Program-made: the position numbers and the translations under genes
NCBI GenBank assembly: GCA_947522695.1
Contig: CANNTX010000002.1
Coordinates: forward strand, 1 to 43,347
Source: an uncultured Bacilli bacterium
GTDB lineage: Bacteria > Bacillota_I > Bacilli_A > RF39 > UBA660
DNA length: 43,347 nt
Direction of reading: 5' to 3'
Shown: piece after piece, positions 2,190-39,677 of the stretch
Numbering within the stretch: position 1 is the first letter of the stretch
How the letters are laid out: the number at the start of each line of letters is the position of its first letter
Notes under the pieces: generated by a model
What the model was told of the DNA's origin: nothing
The model's input: the letters and a program-made list of their open reading frames with translations, nothing else
Database searches by the model: none

Positions 2190-2943
2190 CTACAATTTCT
2201 TTTAATTCACCATCAACATTAATTACATAAGACATTTTTAAAACATTAACAGTTAAAACTTTATATTTTTTTCCTTCATAAATAACTTCACTACCAATTT
2301 TAGGAAGCAAACTTCTATAATAACTGTAATTTTCATCTTCATATGCTAAACAACACAACAATCTTCCACAAGCACCATTTATTTTAGAAGGATTTAAAGC
2401 AATATTTTGATTCTTAGCCATATTAATTCCAACTGCTTCAAGTTCATTTAAAAAACTACCACAACATAAAGGTCTACCACAAGGACCTAAACCAGATATT
2501 TTTCTAGCCTTATCTCTGATACCAATTTGATGTAATTCAATTCTAGTTTTATATTTACCAGCAAGTATTTTAACTAATTCCCTAAAATCAATTCTTTCAT
2601 CAGAAACAAAGTTAATTAATAATTGAGTACGATCAAAATTAAAACTAGAATCTATAAATTGCATTTTTAATCCTAAATTTTTAGCCGAACCTTTAGCAAT
2701 TTCAAGTGCTTCTTTAGCATCAGCCAAATTCATTAAATATATATCATAATCTTTTTTACTAGCAACTCTAATAATATTTTTTAAATCATTATTATTTGCT
2801 TCATTAGAAAGATTAAATACCTTTCCAAATAAAGTACCATTGTCAGACTGAACAATAACATAATCATCCTTTTTTAATTCAATTCCATTTGAATCAAAAT
2901 AAACACACTTATCAGTATCTTTAAATTTTACACCAACAACCAT
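2167..2943 (-). CDS. ricT: PSP1-domain protein RicT/YaaT (stage 0 sporulation / RNase Y regulator family)
   Basis: Conserved Cys clusters CGRPLCC and CGRLLCCL; 258 aa; position after holB. Confidence 0.85.
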   Translation of the reverse strand: MVVGVKFKDTDKCVYFDSNGIELKKDDYVIVQSDNGTLFGKVFNLSNEANNNDLKNIIRVASKKDYDIYLMNLADAKEALEIAKGSAKNLGLKMQFIDSSFNFDRTQLLINFVSDERIDFRELVKILAGKYKTRIELHQIGIRDKARKISGLGPCGRPLCCGSFLNELEAVGINMAKNQNIALNPSKINGACGRLLCCLAYEDENYSYYRSLLPKIGSEVIYEGKKYKVLTVNVLKMSYVINVDGELKEIVVDNYERN

Positions 2944-2969
2944 TTTTTCGCTCCTCTCAAAATAAAAAT

Positions 2970-3683
2970 TTATTCTAAACTCTCAAAATATAGTTTATCA
3001 AGTGCCAAATCAATATTAACATTATATCTTAAATTATTTAAAAAATCATTTACCTTCAAATAAAAAATATCATTTTCACTATCCAAATACGCTAAATATT
3101 TTATAAACAAGTTATTAATTATCACTTTATCTAATTTTGACACTACAACTTTAAATTTTATATAATCTTCAAAATTAAAATTTTTAAATTTACATAAATT
3201 ATTAAAAATATCTTCATCTACTAACACATTATTTACATCAATATCATTTTTTAAAACTTGACATCTACTTATTAAAGTTGGCAATAACTCATTTGAATTA
3301 TCACTAATTAAAAATCCAACAACTTTCTCATTAGGTTCCTCTAAAACTTTTAATAATTTATTAACGGATTGTTCATTCATTAAACCAGCATTCAAAATAA
3401 AAAATAATTTATAATACCCATCAAAAGACATTGTAGATAAAAATTCCTGTAAATTTAAAATTTGATCTTTATCAATTAAATTATCAATAGGTCTTAAAAT
3501 TCTAACTGAAATATTATTCTCAATATCATCAATATTAAATATCATTTTCTTTTCTAAAAACAATTTAAAAACACTATTCATAACATCTTCATAATTATTT
3601 GATTCAACTAAAAAAGCATGAGAAAGTTTATTCTCATCTATTACATTTGATAAATATTTTATGTTTTCTTCCTTCATACTCAA
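2970..3683 (-). CDS. holB: DNA polymerase III delta-prime subunit (short form)
   Basis: LSHAFL, LLKVLEEP and LISRCQ clamp-loader motifs; holB-yaaT synteny. Confidence 0.75.
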   Translation of the reverse strand: MSMKEENIKYLSNVIDENKLSHAFLVESNNYEDVMNSVFKLFLEKKMIFNIDDIENNISVRILRPIDNLIDKDQILNLQEFLSTMSFDGYYKLFFILNAGLMNEQSVNKLLKVLEEPNEKVVGFLISDNSNELLPTLISRCQVLKNDIDVNNVLVDEDIFNNLCKFKNFNFEDYIKFKVVVSKLDKVIINNLFIKYLAYLDSENDIFYLKVNDFLNNLRYNVNIDLALDKLYFESLE

Positions 3684-3686
3684 AAT

Positions 3687-3875
3687 CTACATTAAAAGTA
3701 GAAAAGATAAAGCAATCATAATTAAGCCCGGATATCCTAAACAAAATACCACCAAGACAGTAATCAAATTAATTGGTACAACAACATTAAAACCACTAAG
3801 AATTATGTCAAAACTATAAATCATCAAAAATGAATAACAAATTTTTTTCAGTAATTTTAATAACATGTTTATCAC
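3687..3875 (-). CDS. bofA: BofA-family small membrane protein (pro-sigma-K processing inhibitor family)
   Basis: 62 aa with two TM segments. VVPINLITVLVVFCLGYPGLIMIAL resembles B. subtilis BofA HVPINLVTTAISGILGIPGIAALV (recalled from memory). It sits after recR, as in Bacillus. Confidence 0.6.
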   Translation of the reverse strand: MINMLLKLLKKICYSFLMIYSFDIILSGFNVVVPINLITVLVVFCLGYPGLIMIALSFLLLM

Positions 3876-3902
3876 AATAAATTATATTATTCTTATTTAA
3901 AT

Positions 3903-4499
3903 TTATGCAATATTTTTTCTATCTTCAAATGCCCTTTCTAATGTTAATGAATCCAAATAATCAAGTTCAGTACCAACTGGTAAACCATAAGATAATCTTG
4001 AAATTTTGGTATTCATTTTTTCTAGTAATTTTTTAATATATTGTGTTGTAGTCTCACCCTCAATTGTAGGCTTTAATGCAATCACAAGTTCAACATCATC
4101 ATTATCACAACGTTCAATTAAACTATCAATATTAAGTTCATCTGGTCCAATCCCATCAATAGGAGAAATTAACCCACCTAAGACATGATATACTCCTTGA
4201 TACTTTCCCATCTTTTCAAAAGCAAATATACTTTTAAAATCTTCAACAACACATATTAAATTCTTATTTCTATAATCATTATCACAAACTGAGCATATAT
4301 CACCAGAAGTTATATTTCCACATATACGACAAGGATGTAAATTTTTTTTGCCATCCATTATACATTTTGTAAATAAATTTATATCATCGTCAGAAAAATC
4401 CAGTAAAGAAATTGCAAGTCTTTCAGCAGACTTTTCACCAATTCCTGGTAACTTTTTAAAATACTCAATTAATTCTTCTAGTTCCTTAGGATAAATCAT
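3903..4499 (-). CDS. recR: Recombination protein RecR
   Basis: LPGIG HhH motif, C4 zinc finger (CRICGN...CSVC) and Toprim segment. Confidence 0.95.
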   Translation of the reverse strand: MIYPKELEELIEYFKKLPGIGEKSAERLAISLLDFSDDDINLFTKCIMDGKKNLHPCRICGNITSGDICSVCDNDYRNKNLICVVEDFKSIFAFEKMGKYQGVYHVLGGLISPIDGIGPDELNIDSLIERCDNDDVELVIALKPTIEGETTTQYIKKLLEKMNTKISRLSYGLPVGTELDYLDSLTLERAFEDRKNIA

Positions 4500-7222: not shown

Positions 7223-7238
7223 TATTTCATATGAAACA
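7223..7238. promoter_or_regulatory. Decayed parS-like site TATTTCATATGAAACA (3 mismatches)
   Basis: Occupies the position of a parS in the first copy of the repeat unit. Confidence 0.3.
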
Positions 7239-7384
7239 TAACAAAAGAATTTATAAATGATATTACATAGATACAAATAATATATAAAAAATTAATTATT
7301 CATTATATGTAAAACATTTTAAAGTTATAAAATTATTAAAAAGTATCAAATTAATTATCTTAATCAAAAGAAAATCAAACAAAT

Positions 7385-7400
7385 TATTTCCCGGGAAATA
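7385..7400. promoter_or_regulatory. Noc-binding-site palindrome TATTTCCCGGGAAATA
   Basis: Contains the 14-bp NBS ATTTCCCGGGAAAT. Embedded in the 24-bp perfect palindrome AAATTATTTCCCGGGAAATAATTT (7381..7404). Confidence 0.8.
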
Positions 7401-7432
7401 ATTTAACAATAAAAACTATAAAAAAACGTATA

Positions 7433-7448
7433 TGTTTCACGTGAAACA
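7433..7448. promoter_or_regulatory. parS, perfect TGTTTCACGTGAAACA
   Basis: Exact symmetric form of the Firmicute parS consensus TGTTNCACGTGAAACA. The palindrome extends to 20 bp (7431..7450). Confidence 0.85.
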
Positions 7449-7567
7449 TATATAGAAAAAATAATGTTAATAACTTTAAGAATATAAACAAAAATATATA
7501 TTAAAAAATAGTATAAGTAATATTTAATAATTATAAATAACAAATCAATCAAAAAATTCAAAAAATA

Positions 7568-7583
7568 TGTTTCACTTGAAACA
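7568..7583. promoter_or_regulatory. parS-like TGTTTCACTTGAAACA (1 central mismatch)
   Basis: One substitution, G to T, at position 9. Confidence 0.55.
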
Positions 7584-7768
7584 TTAAAAAATGCATATAA
7601 ATAATTATTAAAAAATATTAAAAAATGATAAATATTAAAATAAATAGAAATAATTAATCTATATATAAAAAGTAAATTAATATATTATTATATAGTAAAT
7701 AGTATAATAAAGTTGTTAAATAAAGTTCTATTAATAAAGGAAATCCATTGATAGATCTAAAAATATAA

Positions 7769-7784
7769 AGTTTCACGTGAAACA
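7769..7784. promoter_or_regulatory. parS AGTTTCACGTGAAACA (1 outer mismatch)
   Basis: The 14-bp core GTTTCACGTGAAAC is perfect. Confidence 0.75.
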
Positions 7785-7899
7785 TAACAAAAGAATCTAT
7801 AAATGATAATACATAGATACAAATAATATATAAAAATTATAATGTTATATTTTATTTAAAAATTCAAAAAGTATTTAATCAAGTCAACATCAAACAAAT

Positions 7900-7915
7900 T
7901 ATTTCCCGGGAAATA
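7900..7915. promoter_or_regulatory. Noc-binding-site palindrome TATTTCCCGGGAAATA
   Basis: Same 24-bp palindrome as at 7381; here 7896..7919. Confidence 0.8.
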
Positions 7916-7969
7916 ATTTCACTAAATAAATATAATAAATTACATTATATTAAAAACAATAATCATTGA

Positions 7970-7985
7970 TGTTTCACGTGAAACA
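7970..7985. promoter_or_regulatory. parS, perfect TGTTTCACGTGAAACA
   Basis: Exact 16-mer. Confidence 0.85.
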
Positions 7986-8105
7986 TATATAAAAAATAAA
8001 GATAAAGTTAATAACTTTAGAAATATTAACAAAATTGTATATAAAATAATATAAGTTGTATTTAATTGATATAAATAACAAATCAACAAATAAAAATAAA
8101 TGTTA

Positions 8106-8121
8106 TGTTTCACGTGAAACA
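8106..8121. promoter_or_regulatory. parS, perfect TGTTTCACGTGAAACA
   Basis: Exact 16-mer; extended palindrome TATGTTTCACGTGAAACATA. Confidence 0.85.
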
Positions 8122-8246
8122 TAACAAGAACATATATAAACAAATTATTTTATCAGTATAAATTGTTATTAAATTAACTTAAGAAAATAATATATTATAA
8201 ACAAATTTAACTAGCTGAATCATAAAAAATAAATACAATACCCATA

Positions 8247-8262
8247 AGTTTCACATGAAACA
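8247..8262. promoter_or_regulatory. parS-like AGTTTCACATGAAACA (2 mismatches)
   Basis: Mismatches at the outer position and at central position 9. Confidence 0.4.
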
Positions 8263-8447
8263 TCACAAAAAACATATAATTAATGATACAAAAGAATTAA
8301 AAAATAAATAAATATTAAAATAAAAAAAATAATCTATAATTTAAAAATTAATATATAGTAAATAAAAGTATAAAGATATTTAATTAAATAAAAATAAATA
8401 ATTTTTTATAAATAATATATAAAAAAAATTATAAATAAATTAATAAA

Positions 8448-8463
8448 TGTTTCACGTGAAACT
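8448..8463. promoter_or_regulatory. parS TGTTTCACGTGAAACT (1 outer mismatch)
   Basis: The 14-bp core is perfect. Confidence 0.75.
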
Positions 8464-8583
8464 TATATACAAATTAAAAAATAATAATTTACTAAAATTA
8501 TATGTATTTAAAATAAATATAATTTTAGTAAATAAAAGTACTATTAATAAAGAAATAACATTAATAGATCTAAACAATAAAAA

Positions 8584-8599
8584 TGTTTCACGTGAAACA
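8584..8599. promoter_or_regulatory. parS, perfect TGTTTCACGTGAAACA
   Basis: Exact 16-mer. Confidence 0.85.
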
Positions 8600-8739
8600 T
8601 AACAATAGAATTTATAGTTAGTATTTCAAAAACACAAATAATATATAATTAATTATTCATTATATAAAAAAATTATAATGTAATATTTTATTAAAAAGTA
8701 TAAAATTAAGTGTCTTAATCAAAGCAAAATCGAACAAAT

Positions 8740-8755
8740 TATTTCCCGGGAAATA
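8740..8755. promoter_or_regulatory. Noc-binding-site palindrome TATTTCCCGGGAAATA
   Basis: Same 24-bp palindrome; here 8736..8759. Confidence 0.8.
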
Positions 8756-8788
8756 ATTTTTGCAATAAATACTATAAAAAGACGTAAA

Positions 8789-8804
8789 TGTTTCACGTGA
8801 AACT
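8789..8804. promoter_or_regulatory. parS TGTTTCACGTGAAACT (1 outer mismatch)
   Basis: The 14-bp core is perfect. Confidence 0.75.
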
Positions 8805-8840
8805 TAATAAGTATATTTATTAATGAATATCTATAACACA

Positions 8841-8856
8841 ATTTTCACATAAAACA
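8841..8856. promoter_or_regulatory. Decayed parS relic ATTTTCACATAAAACA (4 mismatches)
   Basis: Weak resemblance only; probably non-functional. Confidence 0.2.
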
Positions 8857-8956
8857 TAAATGAATAAAAATAATGTTAATAACTTTTGAAAAAGATAATA
8901 AAAAATCAAAAAATTATTAAGTTAAGAAGAAATCAATATCAAATTATTAAAAAAAA

Positions 8957-8972
8957 TATTTCCCGGGAAATA
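8957..8972. promoter_or_regulatory. Noc-binding-site palindrome TATTTCCCGGGAAATA
   Basis: Perfect 16-bp palindrome. The flanks differ from the other three copies. Confidence 0.8.
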
Positions 8973-22516: not shown

Positions 22517-24376
22517 ATGAAATATGATGTAATAGTTGTCGGTGGTGGTCATGCTGGATGTGAAGCAGCCAATGCTTCAGCCAAAATGGGTCTAAAAACC
22601 GCATTAGTTACTGCAAATATAAAAAATATAGCCGATATGCCATGCAATCCATCAATAGGTGGAACAGCTAAAGGTATAGTGGTTCGTGAAATAGATGCCT
22701 TAGGTGGATTAATGGGTAAAATTGCAGATAAAACCCATATTCAAATCAAAATGCTTAATAATGCTAAAGGTCCAGCAGTAAGATCACTTCGTGCCCAAGG
22801 TGATAAAATAACATACCCAAGAGAAATGTTAAAAGCGCTAAACTCACTTGAAAATTTAACCATAATTGAAGGAATGGTAGAAAATTTAATTGTTGAAAAT
22901 AATACCATTAAAGGAATAATATTAGCAGATAATACGGAAATATTATGTGATGCCTTAATTTTAACAACAGGAACATATCTAAGAAGCAAAATATTAGTAG
23001 GAAGTACTAGTAAAGAAGAAGGACCACATGGTGAAAAACGATCTAACAATTTAAGCAATGTTTTAAAATCTTATGGTTTTGAAATTCAAAGATTAAAAAC
23101 AGGTACACCCCAAAGATTAGATCGCTCAACAATCGATTTTAGTAAATTAAAAGAAGAATGTGGCGATGACTGTTATTGGACATTCAGTTTTGATAACGGT
23201 CCATTATATGATAAAGATAAACAAATCAAATGTCACATAGTTTATACAACTCCCGAAACTCATGAAATAATTAGAAAGAATTTAAAAAAATCCGCTATGT
23301 ATGGTGGATATGCCGAAGGAATAGGCCCAAGATATTGTCCATCAATTGAAGATAAAGTAGTCCGTTTTGCCGATAAAGAAAGACATCAATTGTTCTTAGA
23401 ACCAGAAAGTCTTTACTATGATGATATTTACTTACAAGGATTTTCAACAAGTATGCCAGAAGACGTTCAAGAATTAATGGTTCATAGTCTTCCCGGATTA
23501 GAACATGCTAAAATATTAAAATATGCTTATGCTATCGAATATGATGCTATAAACCCATTACAATTAAAGTCATCACTAGAAACAAAAGTAATTAATAATT
23601 TATTTACTGCCGGACAAATTAATGGTACAAGTGGATATGAAGAAGCAGCCGGTCAAGGTATAATTGCTGGTATAAATGCTGGACTTAAATTACAAGGAAA
23701 AGATCCATTAATCTTAAAAAGAAATGAATCATATATCGGAGTTTTAATTGACGACTTAGTAACTAAAGGAACCAAAGAACCATATCGTTTATTAACATCA
23801 CGTGCTGAATATCGTTTATTACTTAGACATGATAACGCTGATATTAGATTAAGAAACTATGGTTATCAAGTAGGTTTAATATCTGAAGACCAACATAATC
23901 GTTTACTAAAAAAACTATCTGATATTCAAAAATTATTAAATTATTTAAAAGAAACTCGTATTACTCCAAGTACAATTCCTGCATCATTAAAAGAAATAGT
24001 TACTTTAAATAGTGGAGTAAGTCTATACGAATTATTAAAACGTCCTGAAATTACATTAGATTTATTAATTGAAAATAATTTAGTTCCAAATGATTACAGT
24101 GATGAAGTAAAAGAACAAGTCACATTTGCCGTTAAATATGAAGGATATATCGCAAAAGAAGAGCAAGAAGCAGAGAAGTTATTAAAACTTGAAGAAAAAG
24201 AAATACCAGAAGATATTGATTATGATAAAGTAAAGAATCTTGCCAGTGAAGCACGCAGTAAATTAAAACAAGTTCATCCTAGAACAATTGCTCAAGCATC
24301 AAGAATAAGTGGTGTTAACCCAGTAGATATATCTGTTCTTTCAATCTATTTAAAAAAGGAATATCCTCATGAATAA
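22517..24376 (+). CDS. mnmG: tRNA uridine 5-carboxymethylaminomethyl modification enzyme MnmG
   Basis: FAD motif VIVVGGGHAGCEA, GPRYCPSIEDK and QINGTSGYEEAA. Confidence 0.96.
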   Translation: MKYDVIVVGGGHAGCEAANASAKMGLKTALVTANIKNIADMPCNPSIGGTAKGIVVREIDALGGLMGKIADKTHIQIKMLNNAKGPAVRSLRAQGDKITYPREMLKALNSLENLTIIEGMVENLIVENNTIKGIILADNTEILCDALILTTGTYLRSKILVGSTSKEEGPHGEKRSNNLSNVLKSYGFEIQRLKTGTPQRLDRSTIDFSKLKEECGDDCYWTFSFDNGPLYDKDKQIKCHIVYTTPETHEIIRKNLKKSAMYGGYAEGIGPRYCPSIEDKVVRFADKERHQLFLEPESLYYDDIYLQGFSTSMPEDVQELMVHSLPGLEHAKILKYAYAIEYDAINPLQLKSSLETKVINNLFTAGQINGTSGYEEAAGQGIIAGINAGLKLQGKDPLILKRNESYIGVLIDDLVTKGTKEPYRLLTSRAEYRLLLRHDNADIRLRNYGYQVGLISEDQHNRLLKKLSDIQKLLNYLKETRITPSTIPASLKEIVTLNSGVSLYELLKRPEITLDLLIENNLVPNDYSDEVKEQVTFAVKYEGYIAKEEQEAEKLLKLEEKEIPEDIDYDKVKNLASEARSKLKQVHPRTIAQASRISGVNPVDISVLSIYLKKEYPHE

Positions 24377-25073
24377 AGAAGAATTTAAAAGTGAATTATC
24401 AAAACTAGGAATAAACTTAACAAACGATCAATTAGAATCCCTAGAAAAATATGCTAACATTTTAATTGAATATAACAAACATACCAATATAACCGCTATT
24501 ACCGATAAAGAAAGTATTTATTTAAAACACTTTTATGATTCACTAACCTTAACTAAAATAACCAATTTAACTAAAGATTTATCAGTTCTAGATGTTGGAT
24601 CAGGTGGCGGTTTTCCCGGAATTGTTATAAAAATAGTTTATCCTAATTTAAATTTAACTTTATTAGATAGCAATAATAAAAAAAGTGAATTTCAAAGATA
24701 TGTTATTAACGAATTAAAATTAACAGATATAAATGTAATAAATGAACGTGCTGAAAATTACTTTAAAAAAGGCAATAAATACGATCTAGTTGTCGCAAGA
24801 GCAGTATCAAATATGCCAGTTTTAGATGAATTATGTATACCATTTCTAAAAATAGGTGGTAATCTAGTATTAATGAAAGCAGATGCTAGTACTGAACTAG
24901 AAAATAGTAAGTCAAGCATTAAAATATTAGGTGGAGAAATTGTTGATATTCAAAAATTTAATTTACCAAAAGAAGAATCTTTAAGAACGTTAATTAAAAT
25001 AACAAAAGTAAATGAAACACCATCTATTTATCCCAGAAATTATGATAAAATAATAAAAAAACCTCTGAAATAA
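24369..25073 (+). CDS. rsmG: 16S rRNA (guanine527-N7)-methyltransferase RsmG
   Basis: DVGSGGGFPG SAM motif; mnmG-rsmG synteny. Confidence 0.93.
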   Translation: MNKEEFKSELSKLGINLTNDQLESLEKYANILIEYNKHTNITAITDKESIYLKHFYDSLTLTKITNLTKDLSVLDVGSGGGFPGIVIKIVYPNLNLTLLDSNNKKSEFQRYVINELKLTDINVINERAENYFKKGNKYDLVVARAVSNMPVLDELCIPFLKIGGNLVLMKADASTELENSKSSIKILGGEIVDIQKFNLPKEESLRTLIKITKVNETPSIYPRNYDKIIKKPLK

Positions 25074-25173: not shown

Positions 25174-25202
25174 TTGAAATAAATACCAAAATAAAGTAAA
25201 AT
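25174..25202 (+). promoter_or_regulatory. Promoter of the Noc-like gene
   Basis: TTGAAA, 17-nt spacer, TAAAAT. Confidence 0.45.
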
Positions 25203-25228
25203 TAATTTTAGAATAGGAAGGGTATTTT

Positions 25229-26467
25229 ATGGAAAATGCGATTTTAAATGTAAATATCGATTTAATAATGCCAAATCGTTTTCAACCACGTCTTGTTTTC
25301 GATGAAAAAGCTTTAAATGAACTTGCTGATTCCATTAAAGAACATGGAATTATTGAGCCAATTATCGTAAGACCATTAAATGATAAATATGAAATTATTG
25401 CTGGTGAAAGACGTTATAAAGCAGCATGTATTGCTGGCTTAACTAAAGTACCCGTTATTGTTAAACATTTAAGTGATTATAAAAGTGCTCAAGTAGCAGT
25501 TATTGAAAATGTTCAAAGAAGAAATTTAAATCCTATTGAAGAGGCAAAATCTTATAAGAGAATATTAGATCATGGTTTAAAAACACAAGAAGAATTAGCT
25601 AAAGAAATAGGAGTATCTCAAAGTACAATTGCTAATAAGCTAAGACTACTTAGTCTTGCTGAACCAGTTAAACAAGCTTTAAGTGAAAATAAAATAAGTG
25701 AGCGTCATGCAAGAGCCCTACTTAAAATAACTTCCCTTGATAAACAAGAAGAACTATTAAATAAGGTTATCACTGAAAGATTAACAGTAAAAGATTTAGA
25801 TGATGAAATTAAAAAACTTGATACTTCTACAACTCCAAATATAACATTCAAAATGCCAGAAGTACCAAATATTGTTAACACATTAAATTTATTTGATGAA
25901 AAAATATCTGAAGAGCAAGTAGCATCTTCAAAACCCGAATTTGTTACCCCAGCTGTAGAACCAAAAGAGGAGCCATCAATAACTGAACCTAAAATAGAAA
26001 CAGTTCCAAAAGAAGAAACTATTGAAGTAAGTCCAGTTCCTGAAATTAAGGAAGTTCAAGAAAGTCAAGGTATACAAGCACCACCAGAACCTCAACCCGA
26101 TAATGGTACAAATATATTTGATATACCAACAATAGGAAAAGAACCAAAACCGGATTATCCATCCTTAGAAGATTTACAAACAAATATGGATTTAGGTGTA
26201 GAAAGTGATATTTTAGTACCAGAACAACCAGAAGAACCAATTGTTGAAGAAAAAGAAGAGCCAAAATTAGAAGTAACAGAACCAATCGTTGTACCTGAAA
26301 CACCAGTTGAACCACCTAAGCCAAGAATTGTACCAAACGATTTAAATAGTGTTAAAACTGCAATATCTGATTTAAATAAAGAAATTAAAGATGCTGGTTT
26401 CAACATTGAATTCGAAGATTATGATTTTTCTGATTTATATCAAGCAATAATTAAAATAAATAAATGA
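25229..26467 (+). CDS. noc: ParB-family CTP-switch DNA-binding protein, Noc-like, with long Pro/Glu-rich insertion
   Basis: PNRFQPR and GERRYKAA (ParB N-domain). The HTH QSTIANKLRLL...ISERHARAL is like B. subtilis Noc rather than Spo0J (RPHIANHLRLL...GHGRTL, recalled). The C-terminus FNIEFEDYDFSDLYQAIIKINK resembles the Noc tail. It sits directly after rsmG. An in-frame TAG 5 codons upstream rules out a longer N-terminus. Confidence 0.75.
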   Translation: MENAILNVNIDLIMPNRFQPRLVFDEKALNELADSIKEHGIIEPIIVRPLNDKYEIIAGERRYKAACIAGLTKVPVIVKHLSDYKSAQVAVIENVQRRNLNPIEEAKSYKRILDHGLKTQEELAKEIGVSQSTIANKLRLLSLAEPVKQALSENKISERHARALLKITSLDKQEELLNKVITERLTVKDLDDEIKKLDTSTTPNITFKMPEVPNIVNTLNLFDEKISEEQVASSKPEFVTPAVEPKEEPSITEPKIETVPKEETIEVSPVPEIKEVQESQGIQAPPEPQPDNGTNIFDIPTIGKEPKPDYPSLEDLQTNMDLGVESDILVPEQPEEPIVEEKEEPKLEVTEPIVVPETPVEPPKPRIVPNDLNSVKTAISDLNKEIKDAGFNIEFEDYDFSDLYQAIIKINK

Positions 26468-26493
26468 CCTATGATTAAATTTCATAAGTCATT
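26463..26493. terminator. Bidirectional hairpin terminator between the convergent noc-like and PBP genes
   Basis: 12-bp arms aatgacctatga/tcataagtcatt with one mismatch. A-run and T-run flanks. Confidence 0.55.
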
Positions 26494-26494
26494 T

Positions 26495-28414
26495 TTAATT
26501 TTCCGTACCCTTTTTATAATAATAAATTACCGTATTTTTACTACTTTTAGGAGTTTCACCAGACACCGCATCTAGTGGAATACCTATAATATTATCAGAT
26601 GGTTCATACCAACTATCTTCCTTATTCTTAAGATATTCTTCAATCGTATCACACCAAATATTTTTAATTTTTTTACTATAAACCGAATTAACACTCTTAT
26701 TCATGTCATTACCAGCCCAAACCATCATTAATGCATCCGGATTATATCCAACAATCCAATAATCATTTTCCGTAGTACCACTCTTAATTGCATATTTTCT
26801 TGAAATCTTACTATTTAAATAAATAATAGTCGGATTTAAATAATCAATAAAAGCCGGATTATAAGTATTTGTTAACATCTCATTAATTATAAACACTGAA
26901 TCCTTATTAAAAACCTCCTTAGAGTTTTCCTTATGTTTATATAAAAGATTTCCATTAACATCCTCAACTCGTTCAATAAAATACGTTTCATTTGTAGTTC
27001 CGTAATTAGCAAGAGTTATATAACTGTTAGCGTAATCAAGCATATTAAGTTCTTGAGAACCAAGCGCAAGTGATGGTACCGGATTTAATTTCTCCTTTAG
27101 GCCAGCCATTTTCATAGTTTTAACTAGCTGTTCTTCACCTAAAAACAAATGTGTCTTAACCGCATAAATATTATCCGAATAGGCAAGAGCCGCCGCCATC
27201 GTTATTTCCTTATTAGCATATAAATTAGAATAATTATTAGGTGTATAAGTTTCCTTATTACCAAATACAAAGCTTACCTTCGAACTATAAAACCTACTAC
27301 TTTCTGTCATATTATTTTCAAGTGCCGAATAATAAAGAAATGGTTTAATAGTAGAACCAACCTGTCTTTTAGATTGAGTAACTCGGTTATATTGACTACT
27401 TGCATAATTTTTTCCACCAGCTAAGGCTAGTACCCCTCCAGTTTTCGGATTAACAAGAATTCCGGCTAATTGCACATCATCCTCATTACTACCATTTTCT
27501 TTAATCGAATCATCTAACTTCTTTTGTGCATTAACATCCAAAGTAGTATAAATTTTAATACCACCTGATTTAATTAAACTTTTAGGAATAGAAGAAATAC
27601 TATTTAACTCCTCATTAACCGCATCACTATAATACATTAAAGTGCTCATATTATTTCTTTCTCTTTTACCATAAATTTCAATTTTATCTTTATACAAATT
27701 ATCATATTCTTCTTTAGTTATATAACCATTTTTAACAAGCAAACTAGCAATAATTTTAGCCCTTTTAATACAATTATCATAATTAGCAATTGGATTATTA
27801 TTTTCTGGACTTCTTGGAATACCTACTAGCATCAAAGCTTCCTCAAGTGTTAAATCACTCGCATTTTTATTAAAATAATACTTACTTGCACTAGCAATCC
27901 CATAATTACCTTGTCCATAATTAATTGTATTTAAATACCCTTCCAATATCTCATCCTTAGAGTATCTAAGTTCTAATTTAATTGTTAAAAATGCCTCATC
28001 AATCTTTCTCTTCCAAGTTTGATTAAAATCCAAATACAAATTCTTAACATATTGCTGGGAAATAGTAGATGCCCCTTCTACAATTGTTCCACTTTTAATA
28101 TTATTAAACATTGCCTTACCAATTCTTAAATAATCAAATCCACTATGATCATAAAAACTCTTATCCTCACTAATAATAGTCGCATTAGTTACATATTCTG
28201 AAATATCCTTAAGAGCCACCCAATCATTATTGTTATTACTTTCAAACACTAATTCTTCCTTATTATCATATAAATAAATCCTATTTGCTGAATTAAGAAC
28301 AATCTTCGGACTTATATAAGCATATAAATAAATCCCCCATATACCAACAACAAAGGATATCCACAAAAAAAGAAATATTCTATATAAATTATACATTCTT
28401 TTCATAATCATCAT
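26495..28414 (-). CDS. Class A penicillin-binding protein (glycosyltransferase GT51 + transpeptidase)
   Basis: EDKSFYDHSGFD, GASTISQQ, RKIDEA (GT51), then STIKP, SDN and KSGTT transpeptidase motifs. N-terminal TM anchor. Confidence 0.9.
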   Translation of the reverse strand: MMIMKRMYNLYRIFLFLWISFVVGIWGIYLYAYISPKIVLNSANRIYLYDNKEELVFESNNNNDWVALKDISEYVTNATIISEDKSFYDHSGFDYLRIGKAMFNNIKSGTIVEGASTISQQYVKNLYLDFNQTWKRKIDEAFLTIKLELRYSKDEILEGYLNTINYGQGNYGIASASKYYFNKNASDLTLEEALMLVGIPRSPENNNPIANYDNCIKRAKIIASLLVKNGYITKEEYDNLYKDKIEIYGKRERNNMSTLMYYSDAVNEELNSISSIPKSLIKSGGIKIYTTLDVNAQKKLDDSIKENGSNEDDVQLAGILVNPKTGGVLALAGGKNYASSQYNRVTQSKRQVGSTIKPFLYYSALENNMTESSRFYSSKVSFVFGNKETYTPNNYSNLYANKEITMAAALAYSDNIYAVKTHLFLGEEQLVKTMKMAGLKEKLNPVPSLALGSQELNMLDYANSYITLANYGTTNETYFIERVEDVNGNLLYKHKENSKEVFNKDSVFIINEMLTNTYNPAFIDYLNPTIIYLNSKISRKYAIKSGTTENDYWIVGYNPDALMMVWAGNDMNKSVNSVYSKKIKNIWCDTIEEYLKNKEDSWYEPSDNIIGIPLDAVSGETPKSSKNTVIYYYKKGTEN

Positions 28415-28861: not shown

Positions 28862-29482
28862 ATGGATATTAAAATGAATCTTTATGAAGCTAGAAAACTA
28901 TTTAAATTACCAGTTAATTATACATTTGAAGAATTAAAATCATCTTATCGTAAATTAATAATTAAATGGCATCCTGATAAATTTGCAACTTCATTAAAAG
29001 AACAACAGGACTTAGCTGAAAAAATGACCAAACAAATAAATGAAGCAAATGAAATACTTATAGAAGAACTAAATAGTCATAGTTTAACTCAAAATGAAAA
29101 AATTGAACCAGAGGACGCCCTAAAAATTATAAAAAATATATTAAATAAATATTTAGATATTAGAAAAAAAGCATTATCTGATTTTTACTTTAATAATTTT
29201 ACTTTATTTGATGGCTTAGAATCATTTACAAAGAAAGATTTAAAAGCTGAATTATATTTTTTATATTGTCAATTGCCTGATAATTCTAATTTTATAACTA
29301 AAATACTATTAACATGCTCTATCGAAGAAGCAATTAAATTTTATGAACAAATCATTTTAGAAGATTATCTACAAAATATTTTTAAAAAACAAGAAATTAG
29401 ACATTATGCAAATATCTTTATAAAAGAATTAGATAAATATACCAAAAAATATTATAATCAAAACTACAAATCCAAGCATTGA
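28862..29482 (+). CDS. J-domain (DnaJ N-terminal domain) protein with unknown C-terminal region
   Basis: ELKSSYRKLIIKWHPDKF contains the HPD motif. There is no Gly/Phe or zinc-finger region. Confidence 0.7.
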   Translation: MDIKMNLYEARKLFKLPVNYTFEELKSSYRKLIIKWHPDKFATSLKEQQDLAEKMTKQINEANEILIEELNSHSLTQNEKIEPEDALKIIKNILNKYLDIRKKALSDFYFNNFTLFDGLESFTKKDLKAELYFLYCQLPDNSNFITKILLTCSIEEAIKFYEQIILEDYLQNIFKKQEIRHYANIFIKELDKYTKKYYNQNYKSKH

Positions 29483-29925: not shown

Positions 29926-30357
29926 ATGATTAAATTAACTGATGAAGAAAAAGATACTTTATCATATAATGATGTAGCCTACTTAATATTAAAAGATAAA
30001 AATAAAAAAATTAAAATTCAAGATTTATTTAAAGAAGTAATTAAAGTCATGGATTTACCTGAATCTACTTTTGAAGATGATATCGAAGAATTTTTTGAAT
30101 TAATAATTACTGATAAAAGATTAACTATGATAGACAATGGATTTGTAGATTTAAAAATTAACCATAGTACTAAAATGATTGTTGATGAAGATGAAGACGA
30201 AGATATGTTAATTGAAAATGAAGAAGATCTTGAAGAAGAAAATTCAGAAGATAATTATGATGATGATTCAAATCCAGAAGATGATACCGATAACGATTTA
30301 CAAGATTTAGTAATCATTGATGAAGATAGTGACGATTTAGATTCTGATATGATGTAA
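29926..30357 (+). CDS. rpoE: DNA-directed RNA polymerase delta subunit
   Basis: N-terminal HARE-HTH-like domain (LSYNDVAYLILKD...) followed by a long Asp/Glu tail typical of Firmicute RpoE. Confidence 0.85.
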   Translation: MIKLTDEEKDTLSYNDVAYLILKDKNKKIKIQDLFKEVIKVMDLPESTFEDDIEEFFELIITDKRLTMIDNGFVDLKINHSTKMIVDEDEDEDMLIENEEDLEEENSEDNYDDDSNPEDDTDNDLQDLVIIDEDSDDLDSDMM

Positions 30358-32227: not shown

Positions 32228-32743
32228 ATGAAAAATACTTTAATATGTTTATCAATAATAATTTTTAGTTTAACCTTAATAAAAAATAAAAATCAAAATG
32301 AAGTAATAATACCAACTGACTCAATTCGATTTCGAGTAATTGCTTCATCAGATAGTGAATTAGATATAGAAACCAAATTAGAGCTTAAAGATCACATTGA
32401 AAAAGTTCTTATAGATTTAACAAAGAATGCTACAACTACTGAAGAAGTAGATAAAATAATTGTTGATAACTTAGACTTTATCAACATTCAAATTCATAAT
32501 TTTTTAAAAAACGATAATTACAAATTAGATTATGGTTTAAATTATTTTCCTAGTAAAACTTATAAAGGAGTAGTTTATGAAGCAGGTGTCTATAACTCAT
32601 TAGTAATAACAATTGGTAATGGTCTAGGAAAAAATTGGTGGTGTACCTTATTTCCTCCCTTATGTTTATTAGAAAATAACGAAACAACAAACGATGTAGA
32701 ATACAAATTATTTATTTCTAGTATAATTGAAAAGTTTAAATAA
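32228..32743 (+). CDS. spoIIR: Stage II sporulation protein R
   Basis: IRFRVIASSDS...NWWCTLFPPLC hallmark of SpoIIR; N-terminal signal/TM; near prfA-prmC as in Bacillus. Confidence 0.85.
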   Translation: MKNTLICLSIIIFSLTLIKNKNQNEVIIPTDSIRFRVIASSDSELDIETKLELKDHIEKVLIDLTKNATTTEEVDKIIVDNLDFINIQIHNFLKNDNYKLDYGLNYFPSKTYKGVVYEAGVYNSLVITIGNGLGKNWWCTLFPPLCLLENNETTNDVEYKLFISSIIEKFK

Positions 32744-38810: not shown

Positions 38811-39677
38811 ATGAAAAAAATATTATTATTAATCTCATTCTTATTACCAATATTTATAAGTAGTTTTAATAAAACTACTTTTTTATTTTCTAATAAGGAT
38901 AAAAATATAATTGTTCATTTAACTGATTTAGATTTATATCTAGATTTAAATGACTATGTTACCGGGGTTGTTGCATCCGAAATGCCCGCTTTATTTAATG
39001 ATGAAGCTTTAAAAGCCCAAGCGGTAGCAGCCAGAAGTTTTGCAACATCAAAAATGGAAAATAATTATTTAGAACTAACGTCAGGAATAAGTGATCAAGT
39101 ATATAGTCCAATTTATAAATTGCAAGAAAAATGGCAATCTGACTTTGATAAATATTATCAAAAAATATCAAAATGTGTTAAATCAACTAATAATGAAGTA
39201 ATAAAAAGAGATAATAAAATCCTAAGAACCTATTATTTTTCTATGAGTAATGGTTATACTGAAAATTCTCAAACTGTATTTAATGATACCACTTTTACCA
39301 GTGTTAAATCTCTTGAAAATGAAGATACTCCAAATTATAAATTCCAAAAAACTTTTTCAGCAGAAGAACTTCAAAAAATCTTGAATATATCAAACATAAA
39401 TATTCAAAGTATCGAAAGAAACAATACAAACCATGTTTCCACAATAACTATTAATAACAAAATATATACTGGAATTCAATTCCGTAAATTACTAAATCTT
39501 CGTTCTACTGATTTTACTATTCAAAAACAAGATAATAACTACATTATAACCACAATAGGTTATGGTCATGGAGTAGGAATGAGTCAATATGGAGCTAACC
39601 AAATGGCCAAAAATGGCTCTAATTATAAAGAAATATTAAATCATTATTATGAAAATACCGAAATATCTGAAATTTAA
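38811..39677 (+). CDS. spoIID: Stage II sporulation protein D (SpoIID/LytB family lytic transglycosylase)
   Basis: ALKAQAVAARSFA and GHGVGMSQYGA motifs; signal/TM at the N-terminus. Confidence 0.88.
   Translation: MKKILLLISFLLPIFISSFNKTTFLFSNKDKNIIVHLTDLDLYLDLNDYVTGVVASEMPALFNDEALKAQAVAARSFATSKMENNYLELTSGISDQVYSPIYKLQEKWQSDFDKYYQKISKCVKSTNNEVIKRDNKILRTYYFSMSNGYTENSQTVFNDTTFTSVKSLENEDTPNYKFQKTFSAEELQKILNISNINIQSIERNNTNHVSTITINNKIYTGIQFRKLLNLRSTDFTIQKQDNNYIITTIGYGHGVGMSQYGANQMAKNGSNYKEILNHYYENTEISEI

Follow-up and report, generated by a model that had tools for sequence, protein, structure and literature searches.

A Noc-like ParB-family protein lacking the membrane-targeting helix and bearing an acidic disordered tether in uncultured gut Bacilli

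The DNA analysed here, a stretch of 43,347 nucleotides (the window; G+C content 25.7%) from contig CANNTX010000002.1 of an uncultured Bacilli bacterium, contains at 25229..26467 on the forward strand an open reading frame (ORF; coordinates include the stop codon) encoding a ParB-family protein of 412 aa that appears to belong to the lineage of Noc, the nucleoid occlusion protein. It differs from each Noc so far studied in lacking the N-terminal amphipathic membrane helix, and in carrying, between its DNA-binding and C-terminal dimerisation domains, an acidic disordered tether of 167 residues with conserved motifs. On balance, this protein is probably a cytidine triphosphate (CTP)-dependent clamp of the Noc lineage, loaded at Noc-binding sites (NBS), which would signal via the tether rather than by insertion into the membrane.

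Relationship of the protein to Noc

Two Pfam domains account for the N-terminal part of the protein: the CTP-binding ParB N-terminal domain ParB_N (PF02195, E 4e-33; residues 5-96, 25241..25516) and the helix-turn-helix (HTH) DNA-binding domain HTH_ParB (PF17762, E 5e-32; residues 99-197, 25523..25819). These and the other features of the gene given below lie, like the gene itself, on the forward strand. An AlphaFold2 model, computed from an input of 27 sequences (that of the window protein, with those of 16 close orthologues and of 10 Spo0J), assigns a predicted local distance difference test score (pLDDT) of 70-90 to the folded residues 1-198, ParB_N included, and places helices at 102-197. 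In the C-terminal half of the protein no Pfam match was found. Among the NCBIfam models, TIGR04285 (nucleoid_noc) ranks first with 274 bits and the generic parB model TIGR00180 second with 187 bits (cut-off 58); as controls, the true Spo0J of a relative designated L078 scored 231 and 203 bits on the noc and parB models respectively, and B. subtilis Noc 373 and 219 bits. The best-matching solved structures are those of Noc (7NG0, 7NFU and 7OL9; 176-185 bits), against 165 bits for B. subtilis Spo0J (6SDK).

Alignment shows the boxes PNRFQPR and A-x-VA-x-IEN to be of the Noc type, where the Spo0J equivalents read PNPYQPR and REI-x-LLEN. The N-terminal domain also contains the boxes GERRYKA (59-65) and ENVQRRNL (93-100), and these CTP-binding motifs (G59-E-R-R62-Y-K-A; E93-N-V-Q-R97-R-N-L100) have aligned counterparts in Noc and Spo0J of B. 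subtilis, a Lys replacing the third Arg of the GERRxRA box. The last part of the protein, residues 365-412 (26321..26464), forms a C-terminal (dimerisation) domain of the Noc type, in which AlphaFold2 predicts two helices (pLDDT 54-69). A clade profile built on the final 47 residues can be aligned over its whole length with residues 243-283 of B. subtilis Noc (20.6 bits, which is modest evidence), and the same profile gave no match in three Spo0J; the claim, made initially from the sequence-only reading, that the protein ends in a Noc-like dimerisation motif is in keeping with this. A construct from which the tether had been deleted covers positions 2-255 of the 255 in TIGR04285.

The location of the gene points the same way. 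It is preceded by rsmG (gidB; ORF at 24369..25073, forward strand, with a Pfam GidB match on locus L093 of the same species), which is the usual gene upstream of noc, and rsmG adjoins the noc-like gene in most of the 81 loci fetched. In L078, the order rsmG-noc-soj-spo0J is retained with the same noc-like architecture. Because of the ranking of models and structures, the Noc-type boxes, the C-terminal domain, the place of the gene beside rsmG, and the gene order in L078, the protein is, as judged from its sequence and position, a positional and sequence orthologue of Noc.

With the Noc proteins of B. subtilis, Geobacillus thermoleovorans and Staphylococcus aureus (TIGR04285; 7NG0, 7NFU, 7OL9, 6Y93) the protein has in common the CTP-binding domain and HTH, the specificity-switching Gln and Arg, the permissive Lys, the 16-bp NBS, the Noc-type C-terminus and the place of the gene after rsmG. 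It shares with chromosomal ParB/Spo0J (TIGR00180; 6SDK, 1VZ0, 4UMK, 6T1F) the fold, the GERR and ENxQR motifs, about 45% identity over the first 200 residues, and the arrangement of a dimeric clamp with a C-terminal dimerisation domain, but here that domain is not of the ParB type; and whereas ParB/Spo0J has an invariant R/G pair at the DNA-reading positions and an adjacent parA, the window protein has Q/R and no adjacent parA.

Absence of the membrane-targeting N-terminus

Only 14 residues of the protein come ahead of PNRFQPR, and its start corresponds to about residue 27 of B. subtilis Noc, in the first strand of the N-terminal domain, and only four residues lie ahead of that strand. Aligned with B. 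subtilis Noc, it is found to lack both helix alpha-1, which targets the membrane, and helix alpha-2, which is autoinhibitory, as these are described for Noc (PMC8429893). The amphipathic helix (~residues 1-10) was reported in every Noc homologue that Adams 2015 (PMC4331003) examined, and was shown there to be required for function. The N-terminal peptide (LG-K/R-GL) with which Spo0J interacts with ParA and stimulates it is also absent on alignment.

The start codon is secure, as judged from an in-frame TAG stop at 25214..25216, 12 nt 5' of the ATG, from the Shine-Dalgarno-like sequence AGGAAGGG at the appropriate distance (25215..25222), both read directly from the sequence, and from the conservation of the start position in about 80 species. 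Inspection of the sequence further upstream shows a promoter-like, sigma-70-like element, TTGAAA-17-TAAAAT, at 25174..25202 on the forward strand. Eighty orthologues from other species start 14-25 residues before PNRFQPR, and the range is 14-29 residues when these ~80 species are taken together with all of the 150 best cluster representatives found in a search of 1.84 billion. In that search, made with residues 1-200, the match begins at residue 1-16 in 150/150 of the best clusters, whose representatives are 227 to 785 aa in length. A hidden upstream start, a frameshift or a sequencing error was considered and ruled out, as the short N-terminus is common to all of the ~80 orthologues. That the TAG blocks any N-terminal extension and that the protein has no amphipathic membrane helix at its N-terminus, as had been proposed from this one sequence, is confirmed by the ~80 species and 150 representatives, and the comparison indicates that absence of the anchor is a real, lineage-wide property. 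No description of an anchor-less Noc lineage was found in the literature searched.

The genomes closest to the present one are those of uncultured gut organisms, metagenome-assembled genomes (MAGs) labelled Tenericutes, Bacilli or Mollicutes. The nearest proteins come from UMGS1661 (93% identity) and from Hadza MAGs (85%), with CAG:302 and CAG:460 more distant; the lineage to which all these belong corresponds to the RF39-like orders of Bacilli, formerly 'Tenericutes'. In metagenomes the protein is common: each of the 120 best protein clusters has 85-95% identity to it and a length of 399-415 aa, mostly 412, and one noc-like variant lies on a contig of 1.17 Mb. The same design is common to about 80 species and to at least 150 clusters formed at 50% identity. 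The anchor-less architecture with an acidic tether is, on these alignments, standard for a very large uncultured clade and not peculiar to this genome.

The acidic tether and its motifs

Residues 198-364 (167 aa; 25820..26320) are rich in Pro (16.8%) and Glu (18.6%), with a net charge of -27, where Noc has a linker that is short and basic. In a charge-hydropathy analysis they plot with disordered sequences, and AlphaFold2 assigns a pLDDT below 50 to residues 199-365. The description of residues ~197-366 as a disordered, low-complexity spacer, which was made before any structure prediction, therefore holds as regards disorder, but the segment is more than merely low-complexity, being universally acidic and having three motifs conserved in the clade. 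All 225 tethers analysed (from the 81 fetched loci and from 144/150 representatives; 230 sequences) are net acidic, with median charges of -21 for the loci and -30 for the representatives, and they vary in length from 41 to 535 residues. Among relatives down to 85% identity the ratio of non-synonymous to synonymous substitution rates (dN/dS) is 0.38-0.55 for the tether, 0.04-0.08 for the folded N-terminal half and 0.03-0.16 for the C-terminal domain, and a total length of 412 aa is kept.

The three motifs stand out by their conservation. Motif A (residues 209-226, MPEVPNIVNTLNLFDEKI; 25853..25906) has the clade consensus D-I-P-[LI]-[VI]-x3-P-N-I-x2-I-K, and has the highest hydrophobic moment in the tether, ~0.5, yet is net negative. 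Motif B (residues 292-323, NGTNIFDIPTIGKEPKPDYPSLEDLQTNMDLG; 26102..26197) has conservation peaks at 292-296 and 313-323, the consensus P-N-K-F-F-N-F-L-E-D-E-x-A-N-M, and a slight rise in pLDDT at 307-318. Motif C (residues 346-356, KLEVTEPIVVP; 26264..26296) corresponds to the clade consensus I-E-M-L-D-(D)-F-x-x-P.

Extended linkers rich in Pro and Glu are known from the Pro-Glu/Pro-Lys region of TonB, the PEVK segment of titin and the C-terminal linker of FtsZ. These resemble the tether in their composition (Pro, Glu, Val, Lys, Thr), in their predicted lack of structure and variable length between species, and in a presumed role as spacers that contain, or end in, short docking peptides. The likeness is an analogy only, there being no sequence homology, and the tether differs from all three in lying inside a clamp of the ParB type, where it links the domain that binds DNA to the one for dimerisation and would set the size of the lumen.

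Motif B raises the question of whether the membrane anchor has not disappeared but moved, with PNKFFNFLEDE forming a membrane-binding amphipathic helix within the tether. A common pattern, [SN]-[KR]-[FL]-F-[GN]-[LF], unites the motif B consensus (N-K-F-F-N-F) with the N-terminus of B. subtilis Noc (S-R-F-F-G-L); the hydrophobic moment of the consensus is 0.52-0.56, compared with 0.46 for Noc residues 1-12; and in most species no other element of the tether is as well conserved as motif B. However, the motif has a charge of -2 and the tether one of -21 to -30, so that repulsion by anionic membranes would be expected, and reversal of charge at K2 or R7 abolishes membrane binding by B. subtilis Noc (PMC4331003). 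The version found in the present genus, NIFDIPTIG...PSLEDLQTNM, contains prolines and has a hydrophobic moment of only 0.15-0.17, AlphaFold2 predicts no helix at motif B, and a site within the tether would be beyond the reach of gating by the N-terminal CTP switch of Noc (PMC8429893). A relocated anchor is accordingly considered unlikely.

DNA-reading residues and the predicted binding site

Alignment of the recognition region (residues 128-164, GVSQSTIANKLRLLSL...ISERHARAL; 25610..25720) with B. subtilis Noc and Spo0J places Q131, K137, S142 and R159 at the four specificity positions, numbered 173, 179, 184 and 201 in Caulobacter and occupied by Q/K/K/R in Noc. The recognition helix is therefore Noc-type, and the three residues picked out as Noc-like in the sequence-only reading, Q131, K137 and R159, were correctly identified. 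Q-K-[N/S/T/A/G]-R is found in 80/80 orthologues, with Lys at the third position in none; among the cluster representatives there are rare exceptions, one with Arg or Leu at the second position and two with Lys at the third. Noc, in contrast, has Lys at this third position, where the proteins considered here have Ser, Asn or Thr.

The work of Jalal et al. 2020 (PMC7383237) allows roles to be allocated to these residues. The two specificity-switching residues are Q173, which reads adenine 1, and R201, which reads cytosine 6; a single Lys at either 179 or 184 is enough to license NBS binding; parS binders invariably have R173 and G201; and at 201 most dual-specificity variants carry Thr or Ser. 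In the window protein the invariant Arg173/Gly201 of ParB are replaced by Gln131/Arg159. The combination QKAR can be placed by elimination, from the 15-variant panel of that study, in the NBS-preferring class, and a binding preference for NBS is predicted for the noc-like protein. Since Q, R and one permissive Lys suffice for NBS specificity (PMC7383237), Ser142 is not, on present sequence evidence, any sign of an intermediate state. The proposal of an evolutionary intermediate is disfavoured, for the additional reason that relatives with the same signature also possess Spo0J.

An array of parS and NBS beside oriC

Sites for both classes of protein are present in the window. A non-coding array between tadA and gyrA (7223..8972) contains interleaved parS and NBS, and the earlier statement that such an array lies 17 kb from the noc-like gene is correct. 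The NBS palindrome, tATTTCCCGGGAAATa, the cognate site of Noc and presumably of this protein, occurs in the window as four perfect 16-mers (TATTTCCCGGGAAATA at 7385, 7900, 8740 and 8957), while the 9-10 parS comprise nine with <=2 mismatches, four of them perfect, and a tenth with three mismatches. The region as a whole, of ~2 kb, is non-coding and very AT-rich; the NBS typically stand 32-54 bp ahead of a parS, and a DnaA-box-like sequence, TGTGGAAAA, occurs near both edges, at about 7115 and 9046.

The array persists in six strains of the same species (L081-L086, at about 2400-4300), with 5-11 parS and 2-5 NBS; in one same-species strain it takes the form of a 1.3-kb version. The parS cores are 93% identical, but the 40 bp on each side are only 46-48% identical, the random level for this composition, and Tandem Repeats Finder detected no long-period repeat in the array. 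The units are too diverged for repeat detection, and only the 16-bp parS and NBS cores are conserved. Because the parS cores are evidently under selection, a parS-binding protein is implied. A further perfect NBS lies inside mfd, 64 bp past the left end of the window (position 11565 in L081-L086), in 6/6 same-species contigs, and NBS are therefore not confined to the array.

Perfect NBS are maintained elsewhere in the clade as well. The loci of relatives, amounting to 1.3 Mb, contain 19 NBS (15 perfect and four with one mismatch), one per locus and typically 3-4 kb upstream of the gene, against a calculated chance expectation of about 3e-4 for 1.3 Mb of DNA of 26% GC. Loci with a single perfect NBS at this distance, near jag/mnmE/mnmG, include L014, L015, L017, L021, L027, L031, L037, L069, L074, L078, L080 and others; in the window there is no NBS at the jag/mnmE/mnmG stretch. 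No parS was found within 10 kb of the noc-like gene in 80 relatives, those with Spo0J included, so that absence of nearby parS in relatives is uninformative about ParB.

The reader of parS

In the window, rsmG is followed by one ParB-family gene and then by a convergent gene for a class-A penicillin-binding protein (PBP), which occupies the place of soj-spo0J in Bacillus. That soj-spo0J are missing from their canonical place, and that there is no ParA/ParB pair at this locus, had been noted from the list of ORFs; searches of the 43-kb window by tblastn with B. subtilis Soj, Spo0J and Noc agree, detecting no other ParA or ParB. Neither was detected in the 10 kb past each end of the window on same-species contigs, where the flanking genes are mfd, tatD, ksgA, a cold-shock protein gene and glyS on one side, and a pyruvate:ferredoxin oxidoreductase (PFOR) gene, recG and defence genes on the other. 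In most of 80 related species, soj-spo0J are likewise absent within 10 kb of the noc-like gene.

Other members of the clade do have both proteins. The CAG:302-like genome L026 (on a 1.675-Mb contig) encodes a Noc-like protein with the signature QKSR together with a canonical soj-spo0J divergent from rpmH, and L078 has a QKAR Noc-like protein together with a canonical soj-spo0J. In both, Spo0J has its N-terminal ParA-interacting peptide (KKALGKGLEELF and RRALGRGLEELF, respectively). Pairwise identities place the L026-like genus closer to L078 than the present genus. A two-protein, two-site system is thereby shown, at the level of gene content, to exist in the clade. When the L026 and L078 Spo0J were used as queries in a protein search, 118 of the 120 matches listed were L026-like and two were L078-like, and none of those listed was on the contigs that carry the noc-like gene (275,730; 204,139; and 1,172,732 bp).

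The sequence-only reading had left two alternatives: either the protein reads both palindromes, as an evolutionary intermediate, or a separate Spo0J is encoded elsewhere. In the first, the sole ParB-family protein would serve both segregation and occlusion. The failure to find a second ParB or ParA in ~63 kb around the origin is what this would predict; the interleaving of parS and NBS in one array, the Ser at position 142 where Bacillus Noc has Lys, and the lack of a nearby soj-spo0J in most of the related species also accord with it. The residues that read the DNA, however, speak against it: parS binders have an invariant Arg173 and dual variants mostly Thr/Ser201, where this protein has Gln and Arg (PMC7383237), and QKAR falls by elimination among the NBS-preferring variants of the 15-variant panel. 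The recognition helices are, furthermore, essentially identical to those of L026 and L078, which have Spo0J, and so show no adaptation to a second site, and the N-terminal ParA-interaction peptide is missing. Dual reading is therefore very unlikely. The second alternative is favoured, because the parS cores are selected, the array persists in six strains, and L026-like genomes and L078 have both proteins: very probably, parS in this species is read by another protein, a canonical Spo0J whose gene lies beyond the ~63 kb seen.

Least probable of all is that the protein is a plain chromosomal ParB (Spo0J) with a lineage-specific insertion, binding parS and loading SMC, whose Noc features are superficial. 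Annotation pipelines would in fact name it 'ParB/RepB/Spo0J family partition protein', its score being below the Noc cut-off, and it is the sole ParB-family gene found near oriC, with parS abundant nearby. Yet it has Gln131/Arg159 in place of the invariant Arg/Gly, its boxes and C-terminal domain are Noc-type, neither a ParA partner nor a ParA-interaction peptide was found, perfect NBS are maintained across the clade, and L078 and L026-like genomes hold a noc-like protein as well as a true Spo0J. These facts together make a plain ParB extremely improbable.

A possible mode of action

From what is known of the family, the noc-like protein would bind CTP, load at NBS in the form of a dimeric clamp whose subunits are joined through the Noc-type C-terminal domain, and then spread or slide along the DNA. 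Without the N-terminal helix, it would not be expected to insert into the membrane in the known, CTP-released manner. With a 167-residue tether in each subunit, the lumen of the clamp would be much larger than with the ~20-residue linker of ParB and Noc. Motifs A-C could be docking sites for one or more partners in division, replication or membrane attachment, and the output would then be recruitment of a partner or, alternatively, steric or electrostatic exclusion by a bulky acidic 'brush', and not direct binding to the membrane. While we consider clamp loading at NBS with signalling via the tether to be probable, the specific proposal of motif docking or an acidic brush as the output in place of membrane insertion has about as much to be said for it as against it. 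Because the NBS seen cluster with parS beside oriC, the function may have as much to do with segregation, control of replication or anchoring at the origin region as with classical nucleoid occlusion. It is tempting to suggest that this branch of the Bacilli has exchanged CTP-gated membrane insertion for an acidic, motif-bearing tether that recruits a partner, acting from a composite parS/NBS 'centromere' by oriC, but this wider idea is put forward tentatively, as less likely than not.

Several observations weigh against the reading of the protein as a Noc-lineage clamp that signals via its tether. It is without the feature that defines how Noc works. Its 274 bits fall short of the curated Noc cut-off of 315 bits for TIGR04285, and removal of the tether did not raise the score, the tether-free construct giving 271.8 bits. 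The B. subtilis Noc, Spo0J and Soj reference sequences used here were validated only indirectly, by the 373 bits of Noc on TIGR04285 and by the agreement of residues 29-224 with PDB 7OL9. In this genus motif B is split by an insertion of ~16 residues, giving NIFDIPTIGKEPKPDYPSLEDLQTNM. For this species, the ~63 kb seen of a genome of at least 1.17 Mb contained neither Spo0J nor Soj. Finally, every NBS seen in this species is on the same side of oriC and no more than ~20 kb from it, most of them in a single array with parS, whereas the NBS of B. subtilis Noc are scattered genome-wide, and because of this difference the role of the protein may not be nucleoid occlusion at all.

Gene neighbourhood

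The order rsmG, noc-like gene and convergent PBP gene is kept in at least 51/81 loci. The PBP gene (ORF at 26495..28414, reverse strand; Transgly and Transpeptidase domains) is separated from the noc-like gene by a terminator-like hairpin at 26462..26494. In the same-species strain L093 (11267-13020), the PBP gene is called as two pieces, a Transpeptidase of 380 aa and a Transgly of 176 aa, compared with one protein of 584-639 aa elsewhere, and a frameshift or faulty assembly is suspected there. Locus L093 also lacks the DnaJ-like gene present in the window at 28862-29482. Conserved beside prfA, at 29926-30357, is the gene for a 143-aa protein whose C-terminal half is extremely acidic, with runs of D and E, and for which no Pfam match was found in same-species loci. 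Homologues of SpoIIR (32228-32743) and SpoIID (38811-39677) are encoded further on (Pfam Spore_II_R and SpoIID on same-species loci), alongside the class-A PBP and an M23 peptidase, in a small-genome lineage that is usually labelled Tenericutes/Mollicutes.

To the right of the window, beyond recG and a DUF975 gene, comparison of L087 and L090 (at about 17-20 kb) with L088 reveals a strain-variable region that houses, depending on the strain, either a HamA and helicase pair resembling the Hachiman defence system or DNA methyltransferases suggestive of restriction-modification. In the CAG:302-like genus (L091/L092), soj-spo0J diverge from rpmH at the site that dnaA occupies in the window; next to them come a cold-shock gene, dnaB (loader), dnaI and dnaE, and in one strain of that genus rpmH and soj are separated by an inserted IS66 transposase. 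Rearrangement of the origin region has occurred more than once in the clade.

Implications for the Noc family

The current model of Noc rests on a single output, in which an N-terminal helix released by CTP draws DNA to the membrane. The existence of an anchor-less family would mean either that membrane tethering is inessential for proteins of the Noc lineage or that there is another route to the same end. The family also provides a natural case for the specificity rules, in that the signature Q-K-x-R without Lys at the third position, in 80 orthologues, fits the prediction that a single permissive lysine is enough. As the sequence scores below the curated cut-off and lacks the membrane helix, it is filed as a variant of Noc and not as a full member. 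Such a sub-threshold score leads to generic naming as ParB, and surveys may as a result wrongly credit these genomes with a ParB beside rsmG, or deny them a Noc. The conserved motifs of the tether offer experimental handles on the partner; and if the proposed mode of action is true, it would represent a second, mechanistically distinct way in which a CTP clamp of the ParB family couples the chromosome to the cell cycle.

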